Below, piece by piece: positions 13,153 to 63,900 of a stretch of DNA of 64,000 nucleotides. Source of the DNA: Octopus vulgaris (Eukaryota); contig OX597831.1 in assembly GCA_951406725.2 (NCBI GenBank), forward strand, positions 19,592,001 through 19,656,000, in the 5' to 3' direction. The position numbers were made by a program, and so were the translations under genes. Every line of letters starts with the position of its first letter. Within the stretch, counting starts at the first letter, position 1. A model generated the notes under the pieces. It was given only the letters and a program-made list of their open reading frames with translations, was not told where the DNA came from and searched no databases.

Positions 13153-13465
13153 ATTTAACAAGAATTGTATTAGCATTTATACATTTAGGCAGGTTTAAAG
13201 GAGTGGTGGTGGGGGACTTTTTGGGGGTAGGCATAGCGCAAAATATCATACTTGGGGGAGTGGTCAAGGAGTCAGTGGTAAGTTAGATGAAAGAATAGAT
13301 AAATAAAAAAATAAAAAAATAAAAAATATATATAAAAAATATATATATAAAAATATATATATAAAAAAAGGGGGGAAAGAGTTATAGGTAAATAAGGAGA
13401 TTCTCACTTATACCTATACACACATGTATACGTATCTACACACACATACATACACATATATATAT

Positions 13466-13518
<53 letters not shown>

Positions 13519-14320
13519 CACACATACATACATATCTACATACACACATACATACACCCGCCCACATATACAAATTTATACACATGCACATGCCTATACC
13601 TGTCTACACATACACACACGTATATATGCATACACTCACTCCCATGCATGCACGCATACACACATGTATATATATATATATACCCACGACCACACATACA
13701 TATATACACAGAAAAATATATATTCATACGCACATACACTCATGCACACACAACACTCCTAGTTCCCTATATACACATATTTACACCTATATATACATAC
13801 ACCCACATACACCTATGTACATATATGTATATATATATATATATATACATATACACGCATACATATATATACATGTGTGCACATACATACATACACACAT
13901 ATACATACACATACACATACACATGTGTACCTATACATACCTACACATACACACATACATACATACAAATATATATATATATATATATATATACAATCCA
14001 ATACAGGCCCATTCCTAATTTTAATTTTATTATCTTCATTTATTACTTTTGTTATCTTTGATCGCTAGATCTAAGAATCCTGGCTATGGCTGCATGTCCA
14101 TTTGTCTGTCTACTAGAAGGCAAGTACTCATTCGCACGCACACTCATTAGCACGTACATTCACCCATTCATACACTCATACACATACACGTACGCACACG
14201 TTATATTCATACATACAAACATCTACATACGTTCACGTATATACACATACGTACTCGTACCTACAGATTCGTGTCTACACTTTAGGAGGCTAGTCTATAC
14301 ATATACACCAATAAATATAC

Positions 14321-14357
<37 letters not shown>

Positions 14358-14594
14358 TATATACTCCTACATACAGATACATACCTATATATATATATAT
14401 ATATATATACATATATATACATACATACACATACACACATACATATACACACACATACATACACATATATATACATACACAAACATATATACACACATAT
14501 ATATACATACACACATACACACATACATACGTATACATACATACATACATCCATACATCCATATTACATGCATTTATACGCATACACACACCCA

Positions 14595-14631
<37 letters not shown>

Positions 14632-14902
14632 TCACACATACATATACAAATCTACGCACACACATACATACATACACGTATACACATACACGCACATACA
14701 CATATACATGCGTACCCATACACGTGCACACACGCACGCGCATCCATATATATACACACACACACATATATATACGTGTGCAAGCATACATACATACTCA
14801 TACGCGCACACATACTTACATATACATATATGCACACACTTACACACATATATATACACATATACATGCATACATACATATATGCATACATACACACACG
14901 CA

Positions 14903-14966
<64 letters not shown>

Positions 14967-15214
14967 TACATACATACACACACATATATATACACATATA
15001 TATATATATATATACACCATACACATACATATATACACATATACATACATATACATACACACACACATACATATATACATATACACTGATACACATACCC
15101 ATACATATATATATATATACACACACACACATATATACACATGCATATACTTATATCACTACATACTCACATATATAAACATATATACATATACACACAT
15201 ACATATATACATAT

Positions 15215-15265
<51 letters not shown>

Positions 15266-15449
15266 TATACACATATACATGTATACATACGCAATAATGA
15301 TACACATATATACACATACACACACACAGACAGATGCATTTACATACATATATATATATAAATTACATATCTATATAAATACATACATAATACACATATA
15401 CACACACATATATATACATTCATGCATATACATATACAAGTATACATAC

Positions 15450-15494
<45 letters not shown>

Positions 15495-15892
15495 AATACA
15501 TACATACACACATACACACACACATATATATACATACACACATATACATATATATATATATCAACAAGGGAGGGTAAAGTTAATTAGTTATTAATCAATT
15601 TCATCAAGTGTTCAGTATGTAAAGGGACCATTATTATTTTGAGTAAACAATGTTAGAGGGAAAAATTCTCTAAGTAGTGGAAGAGGCTAAAAACTTTATT
15701 GGCTGCTATTTCTAGAAAGTTTAGTATGTGGCAAAGTAATTTATTTTATTTTACTAAGCCCTAATTATATAATATTTTATACATACATACACATACATAA
15801 ACACATACATTTACACATACATATGCATATACATATATACACATATACATACAAACACATGTACACATATACACACACACACACATACAAGC

Positions 15893-16174: not shown

Positions 16175-16818
16175 GCTTGTATGTGTGTGTGTGTGTATAT
16201 GTGTACATGTGTTTGTATGTATATGTGTATATATGTATATGCATATGTATGTGTAAATGTATGTGTTTATGTATGTGTATGTATGTATAAAATATTATAT
16301 AATTAGGGCTTAGTAAAATAAAATAAATTACTTTGCCACATACTAAACTTTCTAGAAATAGCAGCCAATAAAGTTTTTAGCCTCTTCCACTACTTAGAGA
16401 ATTTTTTCCCTCTAACATTGTTTACTCAAAATAATAATGGTCCCTTTACATACTGAACACTTGATGAAATTGATTAATAACTAATTAACTTTACCCTCCC
16501 TTGTTGATATATATATATATATGTATATGTGTACATGTATGTATATATATGTGTGTGTGTATGTGTGTATGTATGTATTTGTATATGTGTGTGTGTATAT
16601 GTATGTGTGCGCGTGTGTGTGTATGTATGTGTATGTATACTTGTATATGTATATGCATGAATGTATATATATGTGTGTGTATATGTGTATTATGTATGTA
16701 TTTATATAGATATATAATTTATATATATATATGTATGTAAATGCATCTGTCTGTGTGTGTGTATGTGTATATATGTGTATCATTATTGCGTATGTATACA
16801 TGTATATGTGTATATGTA

Positions 16819-16858
<40 letters not shown>

Positions 16859-16986
16859 GGTATATATATATGTATATATATATATGCATACGTATGTGTA
16901 TGTACATGTATATATGTATGTGTGTATATGTATATATGTTTATATATGTGAGTATGTAGTGATATAAGTATATGCATGTGTATATA

Positions 16987-17017
<31 letters not shown>

Positions 17018-17178
17018 GTATGGGTATGTGTATCAGTGTATATGTATATATGTATGTGTGTGTGTGTGTATATGTATGTATATGTGTATATATGTATGTG
17101 TATGGGTGTATATATATATATATATATATGTGTATATATGTGTATGTATGTGTATGTGTATGTATGTGTATTTCTGTG

Positions 17179-17217
<39 letters not shown>

Positions 17218-17497
17218 GAGTGCGTGTGTGTATGTATGCATATATGTATGTATGCATGTATATGTGTATGTATATATATGTGTGTAAGTGTGTGCATATA
17301 TGTATATGTAAGTATGTGTGCGCGTATGAGTATGTATGTATGCTTGCACACGTGTATATATATGTGTGTGTGTGTATATATATGGATGCGCGTGCGTGTG
17401 TGCACGTGTATGGGTACGCATGTATATGTGTATGTGCGTGTATGTGTATACGTGTATGTATGTATGTGTGTGCGTAGATTTGTATATGTATGTGTGA

Positions 17498-17534
<37 letters not shown>

Positions 17535-17702
17535 TGGGTGTGTGTATGCGTATAAATGCATGTAAGTATGGATGTATGGATGTATGTATGTATGTATACG
17601 TATGTATGTGTGTATGTGTGTATGTATATATATGTGTGTATATATGTTTGTGTATGTATATATATGTGTATGTATGTGTGTGTATATGTATGTGTGTATG
17701 TG

Positions 17703-17767
<65 letters not shown>

Positions 17768-18154
17768 CTGTATGTAGGAGTATATATATGTGTGTGTGTA
17801 TGTATATGTGTGTATATATATATATATATGTATATTTATTGGTGTATATGTATAGACTAGCCTCCTAAAGTGTAGACACGAATCTGTAGGTACGAGTACG
17901 TATGTGTATATACGTGAACGTATGTAGATGTTTGTATGTATGAATATAACGCGTGCGTACGTGTATGTGTATGAGTGTACGAATGGGTGAATGTACGTGC
18001 TAATGAGTGTGCGTGCGGGAATGAGTACTTGCCTTCTAGTAGACAGACAAATGGACATGCAGCCATAGCCAGGATTCTTAGATCTAGCGATCAAAGATAA
18101 CAAAAGTATAAATGAAGATAATAAAATTAAAATTAGGGAATGGGCCTGTATTGG

Positions 18155-18189
<35 letters not shown>

Positions 18190-18635
18190 ATGTATGTATG
18201 TGTGTATGTGTAGGTATGTATAGGTACACATGTGTATGTGTATGTGTATGTATATGTGTGTATGTATGTATGTGCACACATGTATATATATGTATGCGTG
18301 TATATGTATATATATATATATATATACATATATGTACATAGGTGTATGTGGGTGTATGTATATATAGGTGTAAATATGTGTATATAGGGAACTAGGTGTG
18401 TTGTGTGTGCATGAGTGTATGTGCGTATGAATATATATTTTTCTGTGTATATATGTATGTGTGGTCGTGGGTATATATATATATATACATGTGTGTATGC
18501 GTGCATGCATGGGAGTGAGTGTATGCATATATACGTGTGTGTATGTGTAGACAGGTATAGGCATGTGCATGTGTATAAATTTGTATATGTGGGCGGGTGT
18601 ATGTATGTGTGTATGTAGATAGGTATGTATGTGTG

Positions 18636-18687
<52 letters not shown>

Positions 18688-19004
18688 GTGTATATATATA
18701 TGTGTATGTATGTGTGTGTAGATACGTATACATGTGTGTATAGGTATAAGTGAGAATCTCCTTATTTACCTATAACTCTATCCCCCCTTTTTTTATATAT
18801 ATATTTTTATATATATATTTTTTATATATATTTTTTATTTTTTTATTTTTTTATTTATCTATTCTTTCATCTAACTTACCACTGACTCCTTGACCACTCC
18901 CCCAAGTATGATATTTTGCGCTATGCCTACCCCCAAAAAGTCCCCCACCACCACTCCTTTAAACCTGCCTAAATGTATAAATGCTAATACAATTCTTGTT
19001 AAAT

Positions 19005-33343: not shown

Positions 33344-33573
33344 GGGACTAAAGCCATCTGAATATGGCTCAGGGGACAGGGCGGCTCACCTTTACCCCAG
33401 AGCGATATGAAAGGCTCGTACACAGTTGGTGTGTAAATTGTAAACAAGGTAGTAGGGCTTATAACAAGAGGCATTCGTCCCGATGAAGCAAATGCCTACC
33501 ACGGACCATGGTTTCAAGGTGTAATCTATCATTCAGTTAGCCTCCGCTTCCTCGACGGATTCTCACTATGCAG
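33344..33573 (-). mobile_element. Diverged single copy of the 359-bp unit family, with a degenerate hammerhead
   Basis: Shares blocks gggactaaagccatctgaatatggct, gaaaggctcg, cccgatgaagc, cacggaccatggtttcaaggtgta and cctccgcttcctcgacggattctcactatgcag with the array. The - strand core reads CTGAATGA...GAAAC-CATG-GTC. Confidence 0.85.
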
Positions 33574-33929: not shown

Positions 33930-33991
<62 letters not shown>

Positions 33992-34145
33992 CATAGGGAC
34001 TAAAGCCATCTGAATATGGCTAGGGACAGGGCAGGGTGGTGGGGGTGTTACTGTTGCATTTAGCCCCAGGCGAACATCGACGTCACCAGAAAGGCTCGAC
34101 ACCGTCACGGTGCCCTAAACCTGCAAAGGGAGGTAATTCCCCGAT

Positions 34146-34219
34146 GAAGCGGAAACCACACACGGACCATGGTTTCAAGGTGTATTGCCTATCATCGGCG
34201 TGTGGTAGGCCTCCGCTTC
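34146..34219 (-). ncRNA. Same type I hammerhead ribozyme (first of 7 copies in the left block)
   Basis: Reverse complement of 36627-36700. Confidence 0.85.
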
Positions 34220-36626
34220 CTCGACGGATTCTCACTATGCAGGATTTCTTATATAGATTTTCAAGCAAAATACATTTGCTGATTTCGAAAATCTGTTCGA
34301 AAGCAATAATAATTCTCTAAAAGGGATATAGACAGTAACTGCTCGATAACATAAGGGACTAAAGCCATCTGAATATGGCTAGGGACAGGGCAGGGTGGTG
34401 GGGGTGTTACTGTTGCATTTAGCCCCAGGCGAACATCGACGTCACCAGAAAGGCTCGACACCGTCACGGTGCCCTAAACCTGCAAAGGGAGGTAATTCCC
34501 CGATGAAGCGGAAACCACACACGGACCATGGTTTCAAGGTGTATTGCCTATCATCGGCGTGTGGTAGGCCTCCGCTTCCTCGACGGATTCTCACTATGCA
34601 GGATTTCTTATATAGATTTTCAAGCAAAATACATTTGCTGATTTCGAAAATCTGTTCGAAAGCAATAATAATTCTCTAAAAGGGATATAGACAGTAACTG
34701 CTCGATAACATAAGGGACTAAAGCCATCTGAATATGGCTAGGGACAGGGCAGGGTGGTGGGGGTGTTACTGTTGCATTTAGCCCCAGGCGAACATCGACG
34801 TCACCAGAAAGGCTCGACACCGTCACGGTGCCCTAAACCTGCAAAGGGAGGTAATTCCCCGATGAAGCGGAAACCACACACGGACCATGGTTTCAAGGTG
34901 TATTGCCTATCATCGGCGTGTGGTAGGCCTCCGCTTCCTCGACGGATTCTCACTATGCAGGATTTCTTATATAGATTTTCAAGCAAAATACATTTGCTGA
35001 TTTCGAAAATCTGTTCGAAAGCAATAATAATTCTCTAAAAGGGATATAGACAGTAACTGCTCGATAACATAAGGGACTAAAGCCATCTGAATATGGCTAG
35101 GGACAGGGCAGGGTGGTGGGGGTGTTACTGTTGCATTTAGCCCCAGGCGAACATCGACGTCACCAGAAAGGCTCGACACCGTCACGGTGCCCTAAACCTG
35201 CAAAGGGAGGTAATTCCCCGATGAAGCGGAAACCACACACGGACCATGGTTTCAAGGTGTATTGCCTATCATCGGCGTGTGGTAGGCCTCCGCTTCCTCG
35301 ACGGATTCTCACTATGCAGGATTTCTTATATAGATTTTCAAGCAAAATACATTTGCTGATTTCGAAAATCTGTTCGAAAGCAATAATAATTCTCTAAAAG
35401 GGATATAGACAGTAACTGCTCGATAACATAAGGGACTAAAGCCATCTGAATATGGCTAGGGACAGGGCAGGGTGGTGGGGGTGTTACTGTTGCATTTAGC
35501 CCCAGGCGAACATCGACGTCACCAGAAAGGCTCGACACCGTCACGGTGCCCTAAACCTGCAAAGGGAGGTAATTCCCCGATGAAGCGGAAACCACACACG
35601 GACCATGGTTTCAAGGTGTATTGCCTATCATCGGCGTGTGGTAGGCCTCCGCTTCCTCGACGGATTCTCACTATGCAGGATTTCTTATATAGATTTTCAA
35701 GCAAAATACATTTGCTGATTTCGAAAATCTGTTCGAAAGCAATAATAATTCTCTAAAAGGGATATAGACAGTAACTGCTCGATAACATAAGGGACTAAAG
35801 CCATCTGAATATGGCTAGGGACAGGGCAGGGTGGTGGGGGTGTTACTGTTGCATTTAGCCCCAGGCGAACATCGACGTCACCAGAAAGGCTCGACACCGT
35901 CACGGTGCCCTAAACCTGCAAAGGGAGGTAATTCCCCGATGAAGCGGAAACCACACACGGACCATGGTTTCAAGGTGTATTGCCTATCATCGGCGTGTGG
36001 TAGGCCTCCGCTTCCTCGACGGATTCTCACTATGCAGGATTTCTTATATAGATTTTCAAGCAAAATACATTTGCTGATTTCGAAAATCTGTTCGAAAGCA
36101 ATAATAATTCTCTAAAAGGGATATAGACAGTAACTGCTCGATAACATAAGGGACTAAAGCCATCTGAATATGGCTAGGGACAGGCAGGGTGGTGGGGGTG
36201 TTACTGTTGCATTTAGCCCCAGGCGAACATCGACGTCACCAGAAAGGCTCGACACCGTCACGGTGCCCTAAACCTGCAAAGGGAGGTAATTCCCCGATGA
36301 AGCGGAAACCACACACGGACCATGGTTTCAAGGTGTATTGCCTATCATCGGCGTGTGGTAGGCCTCCGCTTCCTCGACGGATTCTCACTATGCAGGATTT
36401 CTTATATAGATTTTCAAGCAAAATACATTTGCTGATTTCGAAAATCTGTTCGAAAGCAATAATAATTCTCTAAAAGGGATATAGACAGTAACTGCTCGAT
36501 AACATAAGGGACTAAAGCCATCTGAATATGGCTAGGGACAGGGCAGGGTGGTGGGGGTCGAAATCAGCAAATGTATTTTGCTTGAAAATCTATATAAGAA
36601 ATCCTGCATAGTGAGAATCCGTCGAG

Positions 36627-36700
36627 GAAGCGGAGGCCTACCACACGCCGATGATAGGCAATACACCTTGAAACCATGGTCCGTGTGTGGTTTCCGCTTC
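36627..36700 (+). ncRNA. Type I hammerhead ribozyme, U4C core variant (first of 15 copies in the right block, repeating every ~359 nt)
   Basis: Stem I CACACG(36642-47)/CGTGTG(36682-87); core CCGATGA(36648-54); stem II t-AGG-caataca-CCT-t; GAAA(36670-73); stem III AC-CATG-GT (palindrome ACCATGGT); GTC triplet with predicted cut after 36681; distal stem I GAAGCGGA(36627-34)/TCCGCTTC(36693-700). Confidence 0.85.
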
Positions 36701-39700
36701 ATCGGGGAATTACCTCCCTTTGCAGGTTTAGGGCACCGTGACGGTGTCGAGCCTTTCTGGTGACGTCGATGTTCGCCTGGGGCTAAATGCAACAGTAACA
36801 CCCCCACCACCCTGCCCTGTCCCTAGCCATATTCAGATGGCTTTAGTCCCTTATGTTATCGAGCAGTTACTGTCTATATCCCTTTTAGAGAATTATTATT
36901 GCTTTCGAACAGATTTTCGAAATCAGCAAATGTATTTTGCTTGAAAATCTATATAAGAAATCCTGCATAGTGAGAATCCGTCGAGGAAGCGGAGGCCTAC
37001 CACACGCCGATGATAGGCAATACACCTTGAAACCATGGTCCGTGTGTGGTTTCCGCTTCATCGGGGAATTACCACCCTTTGCAGGTTTAGGGCACCGTGA
37101 CGGTGTCGAGCCTTTCTGGTGACGTCGATGTTCGCCTGGGGCTAAATGCAACAGTAACACCCCCACCACCCTGCCCTGTCCCTAGCCATATTCAGATGGC
37201 TTTAGTCCCTTATGTTATCGAGCAGTTACTGTCTATATCCCTTTTAGAGAATTATTATTGCTTTCGAACAGATTTTCGAAATCAGCAAATGTATTTTGCT
37301 TGAAAATCTATATAAGAAATCCTGCATAGTGAGAATCCGTCGAGGAAGCGGAGGCCTACCACACGCCGATGATAGGCAATACACCTTGAAACCATGGTCC
37401 GTGTGTGGTTTCCGCTTCATCGGGGAATTACCTCCCTTTGCAGGTTTAGGGCACCGTGACGGTGTCGAGCCTTTCTGGTGACGTCGATGTTCGCCTGGGG
37501 CTAAATGCAACAGTAACACCCCCACCACCCTGCCCTGTCCCTAGCCATATTCAGATGGCTTTAGTCCCTTATGTTATCGAGCAGTTACTGTCTATATCCC
37601 TTTTAGAGAATTATTATTGCTTTCGAACAGATTTTCGAAATCAGCAAATGTATTTTGCTTGAAAATCTATATAAGAAATCCTGCATAGTGAGAATCCGTC
37701 GAGGAAGCGGAGGCCTACCACACGCCGATGATAGGCAATACACCTTGAAACCATGGTCCGTGTGTGGTTTCCGCTTCATCGGGGAATTACCTCCCTTTGC
37801 AGGTTTAGGGCACCGTGACGGTGTCGAGCCTTTCTGGTGACGTCGATGTTCGCCTGGGGCTAAATGCAACAGTAACACCCCCACCACCCTGCCCTGTCCC
37901 TAGCCATATTCAGATGGCTTTAGTCCCTTATGTTATCGAGCAGTTACTGTCTATATCCCTTTTAGAGAATTATTATTGCTTTCGAACAGATTTTCGAAAT
38001 CAGCAAATGTATTTTGCTTGAAAATCTATATAAGAAATCCTGCATAGTGAGAATCCGTCGAGGAAGCGGAGGCCTACCACACGCCGATGATAGGCAATAC
38101 ACCTTGAAACCATGGTCCGTGTGTGGTTTCCGCTTCATCGGGGAATTACCTCCCTTTGCAGGTTTAGGGCACCGTGACGGTGTCGAGCCTTTCTGGTGAC
38201 GTCGATGTTCGCCTGGGGCTAAATGCAACAGTAACACCCCCACCACCCTGCCCTGTCCCTAGCCATATTCAGATGGCTTTAGTCCCTTATGTTATCGAGC
38301 AGTTACTGTCTATATCCCTTTTAGAGAATTATTATTGCTTTCGAACAGATTTTCGAAAATCAGCAAATGTATTTTGCTTGAAAATCTATATAAGAAATCC
38401 TGCATAGTGAGAATCCGTCGAGGAAGCGGAGGCCTACCACACGCCGATGATAGGCAATACACCTTGAAACCATGGTCCGTGTGTGGTTTCCGCTTCATCG
38501 GGGAATTACCTCCCTTTGCAGGTTTAGGGCACCGTGACGGTGTCGAGCCTTTCTGGTGACGTCGATGTTCGCCTGGGGCTAAATGCAACAGTAACACCCC
38601 CACCACCCTGCCCTGTCCCTAGCCATATTCAGATGGCTTTAGTCCCTTATGTTATCGAGCAGTTACTGTCTATATCCCTTTTAGAGAATTATTATTGCTT
38701 TCGAACAGATTTTCGAAATCAGCAAATGTATTTTGCTTGAAAATCTATATAAGAAATCCTGCATAGTGAGAATTCCGTCGAGGAAGCGGAGGCCTACCAC
38801 ACGCCGATGATAGGCAATACACCTTGAAACCATGGTCCGTGTGTGGTTTCCGCTTCATCGGGGAATTACCTCCCTTTGCAGGTTTAGGGCACCGTGACGG
38901 TGTCGAGCCTTTCTGGTGACGTCGATGTTCGCCTGGGGCTAAATGCAACAGTAACACCCCCACCACCCTGCCCTGTCCCTAGCCATATTCAGATGGCTTT
39001 AGTCCCTTATGTTATCGAGCAGTTACTGTCTATATCCCTTTTAGAGAATTATTATTGCTTTCGAACAGATTTTCGAAATCAGCAAATGTATTTTGCTTGA
39101 AAATCTATATAAGAAATCCTGCATAGTGAGAATCCGTCGAGGAAGCGGAGGCCTACCACACGCCGATGATAGGCAATACACCTTGAAACCATGGTCCGTG
39201 TGTGGTTTCCGCTTCATCGGGGAATTACCTCCCTTTGCAGGTTTAGGGCACCGTGACGGTGTCGAGCCTTTCTGGTGACGTCGATGTTCGCCTGGGGCTA
39301 AATGCAACAGTAACACCCCCACCACCCTGCCCTGTCCCTAGCCATATTCAGATGGCTTTAGTCCCTTATGTTATCGAGCAGTTACTGTCTATATCCCTTT
39401 TAGAGAATTATTATTGCTTTCGAACAGATTTTCGAAATCAGCAAATGTATTTTGCTTGAAAATCTATATAAGAAATCCTGCATAGTGAGAATTCGTCGAG
39501 GAAGCGGAGGCCTACCACACGCCGATGATAGGCAATACACCTTGAAACCATGGTCCGTGTGTGGTTTCCGCTTCATCGGGGAATTACCTCCCTTTGCAGG
39601 TTTAGGGCACCGTGACGGTGTCGAGCCTTTCTGGTGACGTCGATGTTCGCCTGGGGCTAAATGCAACAGTAACACCCCCACCACCCTGCCCTGTCCCTAG

Positions 39701-42700
39701 CCATATTCAGATGGCTTTAGTCCCTTATGTTATCGAGCAGTTACTGTCTATATCCCTTTTAGAGAATTATTATTGCTTTCGAACAGATTTTCGAAATCAG
39801 CAAATGTATTTTGCTTGAAAATCTATATAAGAAATCCTGCATAGTGAGAATTCGTCGAGGAAGCGGAGGCCTACCACACGCCGATGATAGGCAATACACC
39901 TTGAAACCATGGTCCGTGTGTGGTTTCCGCTTCATCGGGGAATTACCTCCCTTTGCAGGTTTAGGGCACCGTGACGGTGTCGAGCCTTTCTGGTGACGTC
40001 GATGTTCGCCTGGGGCTAAATGCAACAGTAACACCCCCACCACCCTGCCCTGTCCCTAGCCATATTCAGATGGCTTTAGTCCCTTATGTTATCGAGCAGT
40101 TACTGTCTATATCCCTTTTAGAGAATTATTATTGCTTTCGAACAGATTTTCGAAATCAGCAAATGTATTTTGCTTGAAAATCTATATAAGAAATCCTGCA
40201 TAGTGAGAATCCGTCGAGGAAGCGGAGGCCTACCACACGCCGATGATAGGCAATACACCTTGAAACCATGGTCTGTGTGTGGTTTCCGCTTCATCGGGGA
40301 ATTACCTCCCTTTGCAGGTTTAGGGCACCGTGACGGTGTCGAGCCTTTCTGGTGACGTCGATGTTCGCCTGGGGCTAAATGCAACAGTAACACCCCCACC
40401 ACCCTGCCCTGTCCCTAGCCATATTCAGATGGCTTTAGTCCCTTATGTTATCGAGCAGTTACTGTCTATATCCCTTTTAGAGAATTATTATTGCTTTCGA
40501 ACAGATTTTCGAAATCAGCAAATGTATTTTGCTTGAAAATCTATATAAGAAATCCTGCATAGTGAGAATTCGTCGAGGAAGCGGAGGCCTACCACACGCC
40601 GATGATAGGCAATACACCTTGAAACCATGGTCCGTGTGTGGTTTCCGCTTCATCGGGGAATTACCTCCCTTTGCAGGTTTAGGGCACCGTGACGGTGTCG
40701 AGCCTTTCTGGTGACGTCGATGTTCGCCTGGGGCTAAATGCAACAGTAACACCCCCACCACCCTGCCCTGTCCCTAGCCATATTCAGATGGCTTTAGTCC
40801 CTTATGTTATCGAGCAGTTACTGTCTATATCCCTTTTAGAGAATTATTATTGCTTTCGAACAGATTTTCGAAATCAGCAAATGTATTTTGCTTGAAAATC
40901 TATATAAGAAATCCTGCATAGTGAGAATTCGTCGAGGAAGCGGAGGCCTACCACACGCCGATGATAGGCAATACACCTTGAAACCATGGTCCGTGTGTGG
41001 TTTCCGCTTCATCGGGGAATTACCTCCCTTTGCAGGTTTAGGGCACCGTGACGGTGTCGAGCCTTTCTGGTGACGTCGATGTTCGCCTGGGGCTAAATGC
41101 AACAGTAACACCCCCACCACCCTGCCCTGTCCCTAGCCATATTCAGATGGCTTTAGTCCCTTATGTTATCGAGCAGTTACTGTCTATATCCCTTTTAGAG
41201 AATTATTATTGCTTTCGAACAGATTTTCGAAATCAGCAAATGTATTTTGCTTGAAAATCTATATAAGAAATCCTGCATAGTGAGAATTCGTCGAGGAAGC
41301 GGAGGCCTACCACACGCCGATGATAGGCAATACACCTTGAAACCATGGTCCGTGTGTGGTTTCCGCTTCATCGGGGAATTACCTCCCTTTGCAGGTTTAG
41401 GGCACCGTGACGGTGTCGAGCCTTTCTGGTGACGTCGATGTTCGCCTGGGGCTAAATGCAACAGTAACACCCCCACCACCCTGCCCTGTCCCTAGCCATA
41501 TTCAGATGGCTTTAGTCCCTTATGTTATCGAGCAGTTACTGTCTATATCCCTTTTAGAGAATTATTATTGCTTTCGAACAGATTTTCAAAATCAGCAAAT
41601 GTATTTTGCTTGAAAATCTATATAAGAAATCCTGCATAGTGAGAATTCGTCGAGGAAGCGGAGGCCTACCACACGCCGATGATAGGCAATACACCTTGAA
41701 ACCATGGTCCGTGTGTGGTTTCCGCTTCATCGGGGAATTACCTCCCTTTGCAGGTTTAGGGCACCGTGACGGTGTCGAGCCTTTCTGGTGACGTCGATGT
41801 TCGCCTGGGGCTAAATGCAACAGTAACACCCCCACCACCCTGCCCTGTCCCTAGCCATATTCAGATGGCTTTAGTCCCTTATGTTATCGAGCAGTTACTG
41901 TCTATATCCCTTTTAGAGAATTATTATTGCTATATATATATATATATATATAATATATAATCTGCTACAACAAAAAGGATTCTTTAAGTTATCCTGCATT
42001 AGAACATATCAATCAAATAAATCGGATTCGATTATTATATAATTGTTGAGCATTAAACAATTTATTAACTATTCTTCAAGTACGGGCAGCATCATTCGAG
42101 AAGCGGGCCACATGAGACATGGTTCATCATCATGTACGTCATACTACTATAAAAAAACTGATGGCAATGTTTCTTTATACGGACTGTAGGTTGTCTATGA
42201 TTGTGTTGGATATTCTTTTAGTCATGGGTTGTGCGACATTGAGTCCTTGAAAAATAACCGTTTGTAATAGCGATGCCAGTTAACTAGCCGTAAAAAGATA
42301 ACCATTCGTCCACTTGCTTTTGCGTTTTCTAGGTGTGTAGTCAAATGACATCGAACACGTGAAAGTGTTATCCTGGGTTCAAATTGTTTATGTTGTTGCT
42401 GCTGTTATTTTTGTTGCTGTTTAGCTCTTACTCTAGCTCTTCCCTCCTTACACACACCTCCATCAAACACATCATGCTGTCTTTTTACCAAGCACTGTGA
42501 AATCGGGACTAAATTGTTCAACCATGCCCTACTTTTTTTAGGAGATATGAGGTTCTGTGCGAGAAACTTGGCTCCCATTTTAGCAGGTCGAGTGATATTC
42601 ATTGACTCTTAAGGAAATTATTATTTGTTGTTGAAGGCACTCTTACAATCAAATACATTCCAACATGATCGTCCTTTGCTCTTTTCTTTTTCTTTTGGTG

Positions 42701-55216: not shown

Positions 55217-55267
55217 TAATATGTATATATAATATATATAATATGTATATATAATATATATATTAAG

Positions 55268-56385
55268 ATTTTCTTCCAGAGCTTTCTTGCGAATAGCAAA
55301 CTGCCAAGCAAGCTGAAGGAGGGAATAATATGCCCAATACATAAAGGGGGAAGTAGAGCAGATGCCAAAAACTATAGGTCTATCTCTCTGACTTCACACA
55401 TCAGTAAAGTCATGGAACGGATAGTCAGAAAGAAACTAATCGCATTCCTTGAGGAAAATAACTCGCTGAGTGATACCCGGCATTGTTTTCAACATCATGA
55501 CTGGGCGTTGAGGCAGTTACTCAACAAATCAAATGTGGACGTAATCTACCTTGATTTTGCAAAAGCTTTTGAGAAGGTGGATCATGGCATGATATGCCAC
55601 AAACTGCGTGACCTCGGCATAGCTGGAAAACTTGGAGTGTGGTTACATGACTTCCTGAAAGATAGGAGTCAGGCAGTAGTGGTTAATGGAGCCACCTCTA
55701 TGAACGCACAAATAGTGAGCGGTGGTCCACAGGGCGCTGTCTTGGGACCACTGCTTTTTATAGTGGCCCTCTCAGATATGCCCTCAAATGCCCGGATAGC
55801 CACTCTGGCAAGCTATGCAGACGATACGAAAGTCTCGCAGAAAATACAGAACCCCAGCGATGTTGCACACCTGCAGCAGGAGTTGGACTCAATCTACAGA
55901 TGGGCTGAGGATAATAATATGCAGTTTAATGCTGAAAAATTCCAGGTCCTACGCTACCAGCATCAAAAAATTGAATATTAAACTTACAGGATATACCGGT
56001 CCACAGGGAATTTCAATCCCAGAGCCTAAGTCTGTGAGGGACATAGTTATCGGCATGAGTGATGATACCTCTTTCCAAGTGCACATTACCAGGATGGCGA
56101 CAAAGTGCAGACGACTGGCTGGAAGAATCCTAAGAACATTCAGAACCAGAGATAAGGAAACCATGATGGTACTCTGGCGGACATTCGTCTGGATTACTGC
56201 TCACAGCTATGGTCACCCACCAGTGTAAAATTAACAGTGGACCTTGAAGCAATCCAGAGAAGATTCACAAAGAAGATCGTCTCTTTGGAACTGCTCAGCT
56301 ACTGGGAAAGGTTGAAATCGCTAAGACTCTTCTCCCTGGAGAGAAGACGGGAGAGGTATGCAGTAATATATGTCTGGAAGATGGC
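55268..56385 (+). mobile_element. Truncated, decayed copy of a related CR1-group LINE (RT domain)
   Basis: YLDFAKAFEKVDHG, SGGPQGAVLGP and YADD; closely similar to the 61.3-62.5 kb translation. Confidence 0.93.
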
Positions 56386-56466
56386 CGCAGTGGTTTTATC
56401 TCTAATTTAATTTTTTCATTATTGAATTGATAAAAGGTGGTTCTTTTTCAAATTTATATTTATATA

Positions 56467-56537
<71 letters not shown>

Positions 56538-56544
56538 GAGACAT

Positions 56545-57470
56545 ATGCAGAAAGACAAAGATAAAGGTGTACAAGGCATATGTGCCTCCTTCTCTTCTCT
56601 ATGCCTGCGAGACGTGGGTCACATATCGATACCACCGTAAACAACTGGAACGTTTCCATCGATGCGTCTCAGACGGATCTATGGCATTAAGTGGAAGGAC
56701 CACATCAGTGGTCTTGAAATATTGGAAGGCTCTCGGTGTGAAAGTATAGAAGCTCTTGTGTTAAAGCAAAGGCTTAGATGGAGTGGTCATCTGGTCAGGA
56801 TGAAGGATTCAAGGATGCCAAAACAACTCTTTTTTTGGAGAGTTAGCTAGAGCAGACCGACCGCCACATATACCAAAAAAGGGGTATAAGGACTTGCCGA
56901 AGGCTTTCTTAAGAGATGCATGCATCTCTCCTGACTCATGGGAAGGCATAGCTATTGCTCGTAGCAGGTGGAGAAGGATTGTGCACGAGGAGACATCCAC
57001 TTTTGAGAAATCTCGAGTTGCACATGAGAAAGTAAGGAAGGATGTCAGGAAGGGCATCGCTGTTACACTTTCAGATGGGAAGGGTCTTCCTATGATGCTG
57101 ACATGCAGTGTCTGTGCAATACCCTGCCTCAGTAAAGCTGGACTCAAGAGTCATCTTCGTAGTCATAAAGCGAACCAGATGAGTGACAACCTAGCCACTG
57201 GTGGTGATGAAACACACCATGCTAATCATATCTGTCGGGCATCTGGAAGAGAGTGTAATTCGGCAGGAGGACTTAAACGACATGCAAAGGTACATGAAGC
57301 CCAGTTACAACTACAACCGGCCATTACCGAAAACGTTTTTAGTTGCCAATTCTGTACATGTACAAGACATTGTAGATATTTAGCTGGGCTAAAAAGTCAT
57401 ATTCGATCACAACACCAGTAACAGTTAAGCTTTGTGCAATGGCCATACTTTATAACGAGGGGGCAGCCAA

Positions 57471-60949: not shown

Positions 60950-63900
60950 TGATTGATTGATTCTAGTTTCAGCTCACGAGCTGTGGCCATGCTGGGGCAC
61001 CGCCATTTGGTGTTGCTACATGGTTTTACTTCACGAATGCTTTTTAGCAACTGCCATTTGGTGCATGAGAGAGTTCGATGCAGCTGCCCTCATCTGCACC
61101 TCCTGCCGTGAAGTTGGTTCATCTGGGATACCTGACAGGAAGAGATCCAGTTTCATTTTAAAGACATCTGCATCCACCCCATGCAGGTCTCTTAGGTTCT
61201 TCGGGAGGATATTGAAGAGCTGTGGGCCTCGGAAGCCCAGGCTATCACAGTATCTTGTCCTACATCTTCATGGCAAATTTGGAGTCCTAGGCACCACGCA
61301 GTGGCGCCCAGTTCTGGCATTTGTGTAACTCTCTATGCCAAAGTTTGGGACAAGTCCTTCCAGGATCTTCCAGATGTATATTATGGCATATCTTTCTCGC
61401 CTACGCTCCAAGGAATAGAGTTTTAATCTCTTGAGTCTTTCCCAGTAGCTTATATTCTGCACAGAGGCTATCTTCTTTCTGTAGCTACGTTGGATCGCCT
61501 CAAGTTCTGTGATTAGCTTGACACTGGATGGTGACCATAGCTGAGAGCAATAGTCAAAGTGGCTTAGGACAAGTATCTTCCAGAGGACCATCATGGTTTC
61601 TTGTTCTCTTGTTCTAAAGGTTCTAAGAATCCATCCGGCCAGTCGTCTACATTTCATTGCCAATTTAGCAACATGTACACGGAAGGTTGCATCATCACTC
61701 ATGTAAATACCCAGGTCATGCACTGATTGTGCCTCTGGGATTGCAATTCCTCCGGGTCCAGTGTATTCATTGGGTATTGCATTTAGTTTTGCATGCTGAT
61801 AGCATAAAGCTTGAAACTTTTCAGCATTGAACTGCATGCTATTCTTTTCAGCCCACCTGTATATTTTGTCCAGCTCACATTGCAGGCGTTTAGTGTCCTC
61901 AGGGTTCTGTATTGCCTGTGAAACTTTTGTATCATCTGCATAACTTGTGATCGTGGCTCTCTGCGTGGCTGAGGTCATGTCTGAGAGGGCCATTATGAAC
62001 AGTAGTGGTCCCAAAACAGTGCCCTGCGGAACACCGCTCATTATTTACGTGTTAATGGAAGTGGCCCCATTGGCTACTACCACCTGACTTCTATCTTTCA
62101 GAAAGTCATGAAGCCATTCTCCCAGTTTTCCAACTATGCTAAGATCACGCAGTTTGTGACATATCATTCCATGATCGACTTTATCAAAGGCCTTTGCAAA
62201 GTCGAGATATATCACTTCCACATTTGAGTGGTTGAGCAGTCGTTTCAGCACCCAGTCATAGTGTTGTAGGAGCTGAGTTAAGCAGCTTCTTCCTGGTCGG
62301 AAACCATGTTGGGTGTCAGGCAGCAAGTCATTTTCTTCAAGGAAGGTGATCAGTTTCCTTCTGACTATTCGTTCCATGACCTTGCTGATGTGTGAGGTCA
62401 GAGAGATAGGTCTGTAGTTCTTGGCCTCCGCTCTGCTACCTCCTTTATGAATAGGGCATATTTTACCTTCCTTCAGTTTTCTTGGAAGTTTGCCAGCTGC
62501 AAGGAAGCTCTGAAAGAGGAACTGCAGTGGTCTTGCTAGGACTCTCTTACATACTTTTAGGAGGATTGCCGGGAATCCATCGGGGCCAGTAGCTGAGTCC
62601 GTTTTCATTTCATCTATTGCCTTTATTACATCGTCTTCCTTTATATCGATGTAATCTATCGTCGCTGCCTCTGATTTTATATCTGCAGTGGTAAAGAAGT
62701 CAGTTGGATTGGGGATTTGGAAATGCCCTAGGGGTGGAGTGAAAACACTCTTGAATTTCTCATTCAGTATTTCACTTACCCTCACTGGTTTTCCTCTGAG
62801 TGTGCCATCCTTTTCAAGGAGTGGCCCTATCCTACAGTGCACCGTATCTGTTTCTTTGGCATACCTGTAGAAAGCTCTGGGGTTAGATTTTATGTTGTCT
62901 ATAGCCCAGGCTTCTTTGTCTGCTCTTTCCTTTTCATGGGAGAATTGCAGACATTTTTCAATTTCCAACAGTTTTATTTTCAGGCGGGACTTTTCACTGC
63001 TTTCAATTTGTTTGTTTAGGCGATTTGAAATTTTTGTACGCCGTCTCATTAAAATTTTCCTCTCTTTGGGGATTTTGTTCTTGTGTACAGTGGCCTTTCT
63101 CTCTGGGACACATTTGTAGCATATGGCTTGCATTACAGACATGAATTGTTGAAGTTTCACGTCGATATCTGGCGAGGAGAGACATTCAGGCCAGTTTTGT
63201 TTGAGGATCTCTTTCTCAATTTGTTTCCAGTTTGCCTTATAAAGTTCAAGCTGGAAAGATTCTGAGGGTTTCTTGTAGGCTGCATGTCCATGCTTTCCTT
63301 TGGCCCGTACATGGTCAGCTCTACCATGTTGTGATCCGAGAGTAGTGTCGGTGTCACTTTCACATTATGGATGAGATCCATATTATTTCTGAAGCAGAGA
63401 TCCAGTGTGTTACCTGCCCTGGTTGGTTGGAGTATTACTTGCTCCATGTACAGGGTGTTGATGAGGTTCAGGGGGGACCTCGCCTGTCCTCGTTCTCATC
63501 TTGTCATTCCTGGGAGAGAAAGGCCCTCGGACCATCTGACATTGGGTAGATTGAAGTCTCCCATAAGAAGTACACTTATGTGTTGTTCTAATGTGATTAG
63601 AACTTCTATTTTTATAAGGCAGTCTTCAAACTTGCCTACATGGCTTGGGGCATCTGGAGGGCGATATGTAGCACACACAACTACATCAAGTTGCCTTATA
63701 TGTGCAATTAGTGTGTCACACACCGAGTTTGAGTATGACAAAAGGACCTGGGGTGTGAGGTCCTCATGGATGTACATAGCAACTCCTCCATGACTCCTTT
63801 CTTTTCTGTCGGTCCGTAGTACAACATACTGTGGTATGTGTAATTCCACATCTGCTATGTCCGGTTTCAGGTGCGTTTCCGTTAGTGCTATGCATAAGGC

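Follow-up and report, generated by a model that had tools for sequence, protein, structure and literature searches.

Both the enzyme that mobilises animal retrozymes and the use of a circular RNA as its template are still treated as hypotheses in the available text of the reports concerned (10.64898/2026.07.22.740005; PMC7229834; 10.1101/2021.04.23.441226). A link between retrozymes and Penelope-like elements (PLEs) has earlier been argued from co-occurrence and from homology to the pseudo-long terminal repeats (pLTRs) of PLEs (10.64898/2026.07.22.740005; PMC7761336; PMC11722881). PLEs themselves are described as carrying an inverted truncated arm and a tail of 30-40 bp on one end only (10.1101/2021.04.23.441226; PMC3846280), a structure whose mode of formation is still treated as an open question (PMC11167929; 10.1101/2021.04.23.441226; PMC3846280). 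A PLE protein, once purified, is reported to cut both strands of AT-rich DNA in vitro and to extend them, its reverse transcriptase (RT) starting at two internal sites between which the tail lies (PMC11167929). PLEs of the Naiad type are reported to favour (TA)n and to occur in octopuses (10.1101/2021.04.23.441226). Here we analyzed a 64,000-nt stretch of Octopus vulgaris DNA (assembly GCA_951406725.2, contig OX597831.1, positions 19,592,001 to 19,656,000; hereafter the window), which holds an array of 359-bp units with a hammerhead ribozyme motif in each. We read this array as one insertion event of a hammerhead retrozyme without coding capacity, likely made by a PLE RT/GIY-YIG protein that nicked a (TA)n tract on both strands and likely copied one small circular RNA many times from each nick. 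Insertions of this family number in the hundreds, are almost free of mutations and have fixed start points, and young full-length PLEs are present in the same genome, so that the question of the mobiliser and of the circular template becomes directly testable.

Architecture of the locus and its hammerhead motif

Tandem Repeats Finder (TRF) resolved two 359-bp arrays in the window, at 33988-36558 and 36558-41931, with about 7.1-7.2 and 15.0 copies and 99% matches. These arrays contain 22 hammerhead motifs, of which 15 lie on the plus strand (C17 at 36681, 37040 and onward to 41709) and seven on the minus strand (C17 from 36318 to 34165). The two blocks are inverted with their tails outward, meet at 36558 with a 1-nt overlap and are flanked by (TA)n on either side. 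Unit positions are numbered here from window position 36682, the base after the predicted cut, and run from 1 to 359. Among 20 complete units of the array, 7 of 361 alignment columns are variable. The longest stop-free frame of the unit is 98 aa, which leaves no RT/GIY-YIG open reading frame (ORF), and the circular fold of the unit is more stable than those of shuffled sequences (z = -3.7, 100 shuffles). Tandem non-coding repeats of this kind, with a GC content below 50% and a type I hammerhead in each, have the sequence features of retrozymes of the non-LTR type (LTR, long terminal repeat). A preliminary description, made from the sequence alone, had placed about 22 tandem hammerhead units at 33988..41931 and called them non-coding and nearly identical, which the analysis confirms. 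It had also assigned one sense to all units of a block; this is correct within each block, but the layout as a whole is one of two opposed arms. An assembly artefact as the source of the inversion was rejected, because the two-arm form recurs with paired ends in 28 loci.

The motif consists of a 6-bp stem I, the core CCGAUGA (with U4C), a U-U mismatch followed by a 3-bp stem II with a 7-nt loop, GAAA, and a stem III formed by an 8-nt palindrome. The type I core, GAAA, a UH cut site and three stems in type I order are found in 22 of 22 units, together with U4C and the U10.1-U11.1 mismatch, two variants that natural hammerheads are known to have. The parts previously listed for every unit are thus present, except that G-U replaces the first stem I G-C in the unit at 40274. 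A loose hammerhead pattern had 2424 matches genome-wide, several sister families included, against four for the reversed control, and the motif is therefore not a product of chance. We then compared 12 family representatives, hand-picked from 46 distinct motifs and from the loci of the loose pattern. In this comparison 98% of cells were paired, double changes were found in 7 of 14 pairs, and compensatory changes occurred in all three stems, in the 3-8 core pair (C3-G8 to U3-A8) and in the stem III palindrome. The covariation score was reached by none of 500 shuffles, a figure that is not a probability because the rows are related and hand-picked. One sister family, in one of four loci scanned, scored below threshold against Hammerhead_HH9 (RF02275; 28.5 bits, E 0.0011). 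The unit hammerhead itself appears to be weakened by U4C and by the U-U at stem II, the latter being described as the best tolerated mismatch at that position (PMC3088659), and an intermolecular stem III duplex is predicted at -11.2 kcal/mol. We infer a slow, dimer-dependent ribozyme that would be under selection.

Paired ends, (TA)n targets and Penelope-like elements

Although the array had first been called a satellite, the family is dispersed and mobile. A search of the genome with the unit gave 466 candidates, of which 40 were scored, with 279 matches; the matches listed are 98-100% identical. The same description had proposed a family of non-LTR retrozymes that is young, has a hammerhead of type I and would yield a 359-nt monomer, and this is supported. 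The family is spread over many contigs in hundreds of insertions, exact copies of the hammerhead number 788 genome-wide, and the dispersed copies have duplications of more than 4 bp where these are visible, as is typical of non-LTR retrozyme mobility.

We surveyed ends and arms in 40 loci (the window locus and 39 others), a set that favours loci holding one full unit or more. Twenty-eight of them are tail-out two-arm loci, 10 have a single arm and two are irregular. Outer ends lie exactly at unit position 178 in 26 of 66 arms and exactly at 222 in 24 of 66; grouped more widely, class A (168-180) comprises 35 of the 66 arms and class B (208-224) 29. One A end is paired with one B end in 26 of the 28 two-arm loci and no locus is AA or BB, a pairing whose chance under independence is 2^-26 with class limits set post hoc. 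In the window, the left arm has a class A outer 3' end that matches the unit exactly to position 170, and to about 178 across a 1-nt deletion. In a second sample of 30 loci anchored on B ends, 18 resembled the unit family and 14 had an inverted partner, with 13 of these 14 partners ending at 176-178; two of these loci belong also to the first set. A (TA) tract of at least 8 nt lies beside 54 of the 66 arms. Exact A-end-plus-TA junctions number 505 in the genome and exact B-end-plus-TA junctions 1248, the latter count including sister families, against 0 in the controls for each. At two non-TA sites (L043 and L044) the target duplications measure about 8-12 and 12 bp. A tail on one end only with an inverted 5'-truncated arm, as seen in 26 of 28 loci and in 13 of 14 of the B-anchored set, and an AT-rich or microsatellite target, as seen beside those 54 arms, are both characteristic of PLEs. 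The paired fixed ends, one-sided tail and (TA)n targets therefore support the involvement of PLEs that had been suggested.

Inner ends are distributed uniformly round the unit (Rayleigh p ~0.43), only two of 66 lying within 3 nt of the cut site, and the inner junctions overlap by 0-5 nt at nearly all two-arm loci. Arms cross a cut site in 57 of 66 cases and at least two cut sites in 48 of 66, and they reach 15 units. Integration as one rolling-circle multimer, as initially proposed, does not describe the locus, which consists of two separately primed multimer arms whose starts at 178 and 222 are far from the cut site. Fold-back self-priming (PMC3846280) was rejected, since there is no relation between the positions at which the two arms have their inner ends, and run-off from cleaved linear 5' ends was rejected because inner ends are not enriched at the cut site.

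These data also bear on the idea that a long interspersed nuclear element (LINE) mobilised the units through L1-type twin priming, or that they form an inert satellite with an incidental hammerhead look. Fragments of LINE RT in the window and the absence of an Rfam score for the unit would agree with it. However, the insertions lack poly(A) or a tandem 3' tail and have two fixed internal ends instead of one, each arm begins at its own outer end, and the (TA)n targeting and the tail are common to the PLEs of this genome; in addition, copies occur on many contigs and the stems covary. Already largely refuted by the end mapping and the covariation, this idea seems to us highly improbable.

Young PLEs in the genome encode an RT, a Cys-rich linker and, at the C terminus, a GIY-YIG domain, and have pLTRs of about 500 bp and (TA)n ends. 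They likewise show inverted arms, tails of 30-40 nt and two ends about 40 nt apart. They are labelled Neptune-type here, tentatively, from the linker only and without a tree. Young multi-copy PLEs (L100-L115, for example L103:1244-6460) have ~500-bp pLTRs and two ORFs, the first of 479 aa without a Pfam match and the second, in another frame, of 781 aa with RT/GIY-YIG. To our knowledge this two-ORF layout is unusual for endonuclease-containing (EN+) PLEs. In the pLTRs we read minimal hammerhead-like motifs with a U3-A8 core, as in the sister retrozymes; this core variant has been described (PMC4209133). At L143 (885-1740), TA tracts enclose a sister retrozyme to whose 5' side a PLE RT fragment is directly joined, which is best read as a probable template switch. 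Copies of the PLE family at L143 are about 90% identical to each other. At three other loci (L062, L066 and L068), the (TA)n tract that closes a PLE copy on its 3' side holds retrozyme insertions, and we read these as apparently shared, reused targets of PLE and retrozyme. A tail match near a PLE (L116) was rejected as a helper link, being a neighbouring sister retrozyme. The window gave no PLE protein match.

The older sister retrozyme families (L120-L149, L190, L207, L221, L245:5828 and L031:1621-1670) have the same tail end and differing stem III palindromes; one of them comprises 2644 candidates at ~90% identity. We read them, from their sequences, as what may be successive waves on one helper lineage. 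The 44-nt tail region, with 78% identity over 46 nt to a sister family, is the best conserved non-ribozyme part between the retrozyme families, and some of the sister copies, though not every one, have a TATA-like box 49-59 nt upstream of the core. The 359-360-nt unit itself falls into at least four subfamilies defined by several sites (L260-L270), each uniform within an insertion; the arms of L260 have 14.8 and 8.4 units.

Template of the arms and neighbouring features

Given that arms run across cut sites for up to 15 units, the template was either a circle or an uncut multimer. The variant A303C has 13 occurrences in the genome, all in one insertion, where 11 and two are spread across both arms. 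Of 17 genome matches to C297, 15 are in the window array, on both arms. Subfamily markers are common to both arms in 12 of 14 further two-arm loci, chosen from pattern lists (one was without markers and one was unreadable). A single variant circle would explain the sharing of A303C and C297 simply. We lean, with slightly better than even confidence, towards twin rolling-circle target-primed reverse transcription (TPRT), in which a dimeric PLE protein works on one ribozyme-made circle, with strictly one start site per nicked strand and two multimers made outward.

The probable steps of the insertion are as follows. An array would be transcribed through at least two hammerheads. These weak hammerheads would cut slowly, probably as dimers that pair through stem III with its palindrome, and the 359-nt circle would be closed by a ligase of the host, a step suggested by the covariation and by tested retrozymes. 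A PLE protein, probably a dimer, would bind around unit positions 178-222 and nick both strands about 10-12 nt apart. One nick would prime at 178 and the other at 222, each then running round the template for 0.1-15 units. The two cDNA ends are then linked at positions that are random and show a microhomology of 0-5 nt, and the inverted form with its tails outward results. Part of the templates would be multimers, or would be switched during copying.

We also considered the possibility that the same two-strand PLE insertion uses an uncut linear read-through transcript of an existing array (or jumps repeatedly from one RNA to another), so that the hammerhead and circles are dispensable. The mixed patterns in both arms of L044 and L272, the mosaic inner unit of L265 and the mixed right arm in the window are consistent with such a template, as are the weakness of the hammerhead, the insertion of uncut RNA by PLE protein in vitro and the finding that all longer contigs reaching a cut site run across it, contigs being unable to show ends or circles. 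However, locus-private variants are fixed through 13 units, and a linear template would need a long source array that is absent from the assembly, although the other haplotype could carry it. Moreover, arrays could only become shorter by such copying, whereas arms of 10-15 units are found repeatedly, and the hammerhead is kept by compensatory change across families. We therefore regard a linear template as unlikely. Less probable still is the lengthening of short PLE-made insertions later at the DNA level, in a minisatellite-like manner by slippage, unequal exchange or conversion. Such lengthening has been proposed for retrozyme arrays (10.64898/2026.07.22.740005), and a few arms (L035, L041, L048 and the right arm in the window) have block-like variant runs; but private variants are common to inverted arms, and with a singleton substitution rate of 5e-4 in 10-15-unit arms any expansion must have come at once and often.

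Several observations weigh against the reading of a PLE-made insertion copied from one circular RNA. Not every array is uniform: with three poorly aligned arms left out, nine substitutions are fixed in all units, nine occur in part of the units (six loci) and 40 are singletons, and position 297 of the window array is C in 15 units, T in six and both in one. In L044 and L272 a mixed pattern is repeated in both arms, so that a multimer template is needed there. Mixed arrays may reflect multimer templates, switching, conversion or polishing errors. As for the ribozyme, the comparison with Rfam hammerhead models proposed at the outset gave no match for the unit, either at the gathering threshold or at E<=10. 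The hammerhead fold of the monomer lies 7.4 kcal/mol above the minimum, with predicted pairing probabilities of 0.08 for stem II and 0 for stem III. U4C is reported to lower hammerhead activity considerably in vitro, yet to support a viroid in vivo (PMC3088659), and eight of nine Xenopus retrozyme dimers are described as being without cleavage (10.64898/2026.07.22.740005). As for the enzyme, the limits of classes A and B were chosen after inspection of the data, and the PLE protein studied in vitro worked with uncut RNA, its two starts being free of strand bias (PMC11167929). In 50 GIY-YIG loci and 16 L143-family loci, neither significant pLTR homology to the unit nor the retrozyme tail sequence was found, 150 of 6136 candidates having been scored and no search having been aimed at Naiads.

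If twin rolling-circle TPRT is true, then the mobiliser of animal retrozymes would be identified, PLE RTs would be shown to copy circles, and the inverted, one-tailed structure of PLEs in general would be explained. In addition, a compact tool for gene writing could come from a small RT able to copy a 359-nt circle into TA tracts.

Features of the two-arm insertion and its surroundings (window positions)
Feature	Position	Strand	Basis
Left (TA)n target tract	33956..33990	.	sequence, TRF
Left arm, ~7.1 units, hammerhead sense minus; inner end at unit position 119	33988..36558	-	TRF, junction analysis
Inversion junction, 1-nt microhomology	36558..36558	.	junction analysis
Right arm of 15.0 units, from unit position 236 (inner end) to a class B outer 3' end at 222	36558..41931	+	TRF, junction analysis
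First plus-strand type I hammerhead, predicted cut after C36681; equivalent in all 22 units	36642..36687	+	motif, fold, covariation
Predicted monomer of 359 nt, from one cut site to the next	36682..37040	+	motif positions, fold
'Tail' of 44 nt that separates the two fixed ends (unit positions 179-222)	41888..41931	+	sister comparison, junction analysis
Right (TA)n target tract	41931..41959	.	sequence, TRF
TATA-like box at positions 269-275 of each unit; putative promoter within the unit	36591..36597	+	sequence
Mosaic fragment beside the array: exact unit patches and unrelated sequence	33344..33573	-	sequence comparison

The mosaic fragment lies about 400 bp left of the array and carries the private C297 of the array. 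It is probably a local derivative or a consensus artefact, and in the latter case it may hint at a heterozygous insertion. An old relative was rejected, because the fragment has no family of its own and consists of exact patches with the private variant.

Of 24 rows of sequencing runs, 20 contain the stretch, under six organism codes, and no RNA run is listed among them; in the contigs of four of these, neither joints nor accumulated ends were seen. One contig, from run X1 (the kind of run is guessed), starts at 36621, 30 nt below the TATA-like box, where it has a loose end of 26 nt, and crosses a cut site. The loose end resembles what we take to be a cDNA template-switch adapter. This start is a lead only, because contigs cannot show starts or strand; if transcription does start near 36621, then the whole hammerhead would be at the 5' end of the transcript.

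Elsewhere in the window, LINE-type RT frames of 205-439 aa occur at 55220-57400 (+) and 61300-63364 (-), unrelated to the array. Two long, similar, microsatellite-rich blocks at 13390-15560 (+) and 16500-18770 (-) are inverted and give near-identical translations on opposite strands.

Comparison with known systems

We conclude that the octopus unit is a new member of the known group of non-LTR retrozymes, with unusually direct genomic evidence for mobilisation by PLEs. In the literature searched, which covered few subscription journals and no bioRxiv supplements, we found no description of a cephalopod hammerhead or retrozyme or of a two-arm architecture with paired ends; no sequence comparison was made with Repbase or Dfam, where a catalogued match could exist.

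The metazoan non-LTR retrozymes described in PMC7229834 (from coral, from Mytilus with 350-400 nt, and Rtz_353 of axolotl) resemble the unit in being tandem non-coding repeats of 150-450 bp with a GC content below 50%, a type I hammerhead and duplications of more than 4 bp. In the axolotl hammerhead HHR_Amex2, helix II likewise has a U-U mismatch at its base and helix III is of 2 bp; it is reported to cut 22% as a monomer and more as a dimer (PMC7229834). By their descriptions, rather than by sequence comparison, these retrozymes are set apart from the unit by its U4C core, and an arrangement of two opposed arms whose fixed ends are paired and lie in (TA)n does not appear in the parts of those descriptions examined.

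EN+ PLEs, namely Poseidon PAc of Anolis (PMC11167929), Penelope of Adineta (PMC3846280) and Neptune and Naiad (10.1101/2021.04.23.441226), are described as sharing the inverted 5'-truncated arm, the 30-40-bp tail on one end, duplications of 8-10 bp, AT-rich or microsatellite targets, a hammerhead upstream of the ends and two internal RT starts. The octopus unit differs from them in having no ORF and a tail of 44 nt, and in that the whole element is one 359-nt unit, repeated up to 15 times in both arms, without significant homology to the pLTRs sampled in the genome. Of the Chlamys PLEs, most are described as lacking hammerheads, and non-autonomous ones such as MRC1 as having 3' sequence in common with their helper (10.1101/2021.04.23.441226).

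The pLTR-derived retrozymes of Xenopus (10.64898/2026.07.22.740005) are likewise non-autonomous tandem hammerhead repeats beside PLEs. In the available text of that report, which deals with vertebrates and includes no mollusc and no junction analysis, the link between retrozyme and PLE is one of co-occurrence and pLTR homology. In the octopus, where pLTR homology was not found in the PLEs sampled, the link is instead the signature of the insertion itself.

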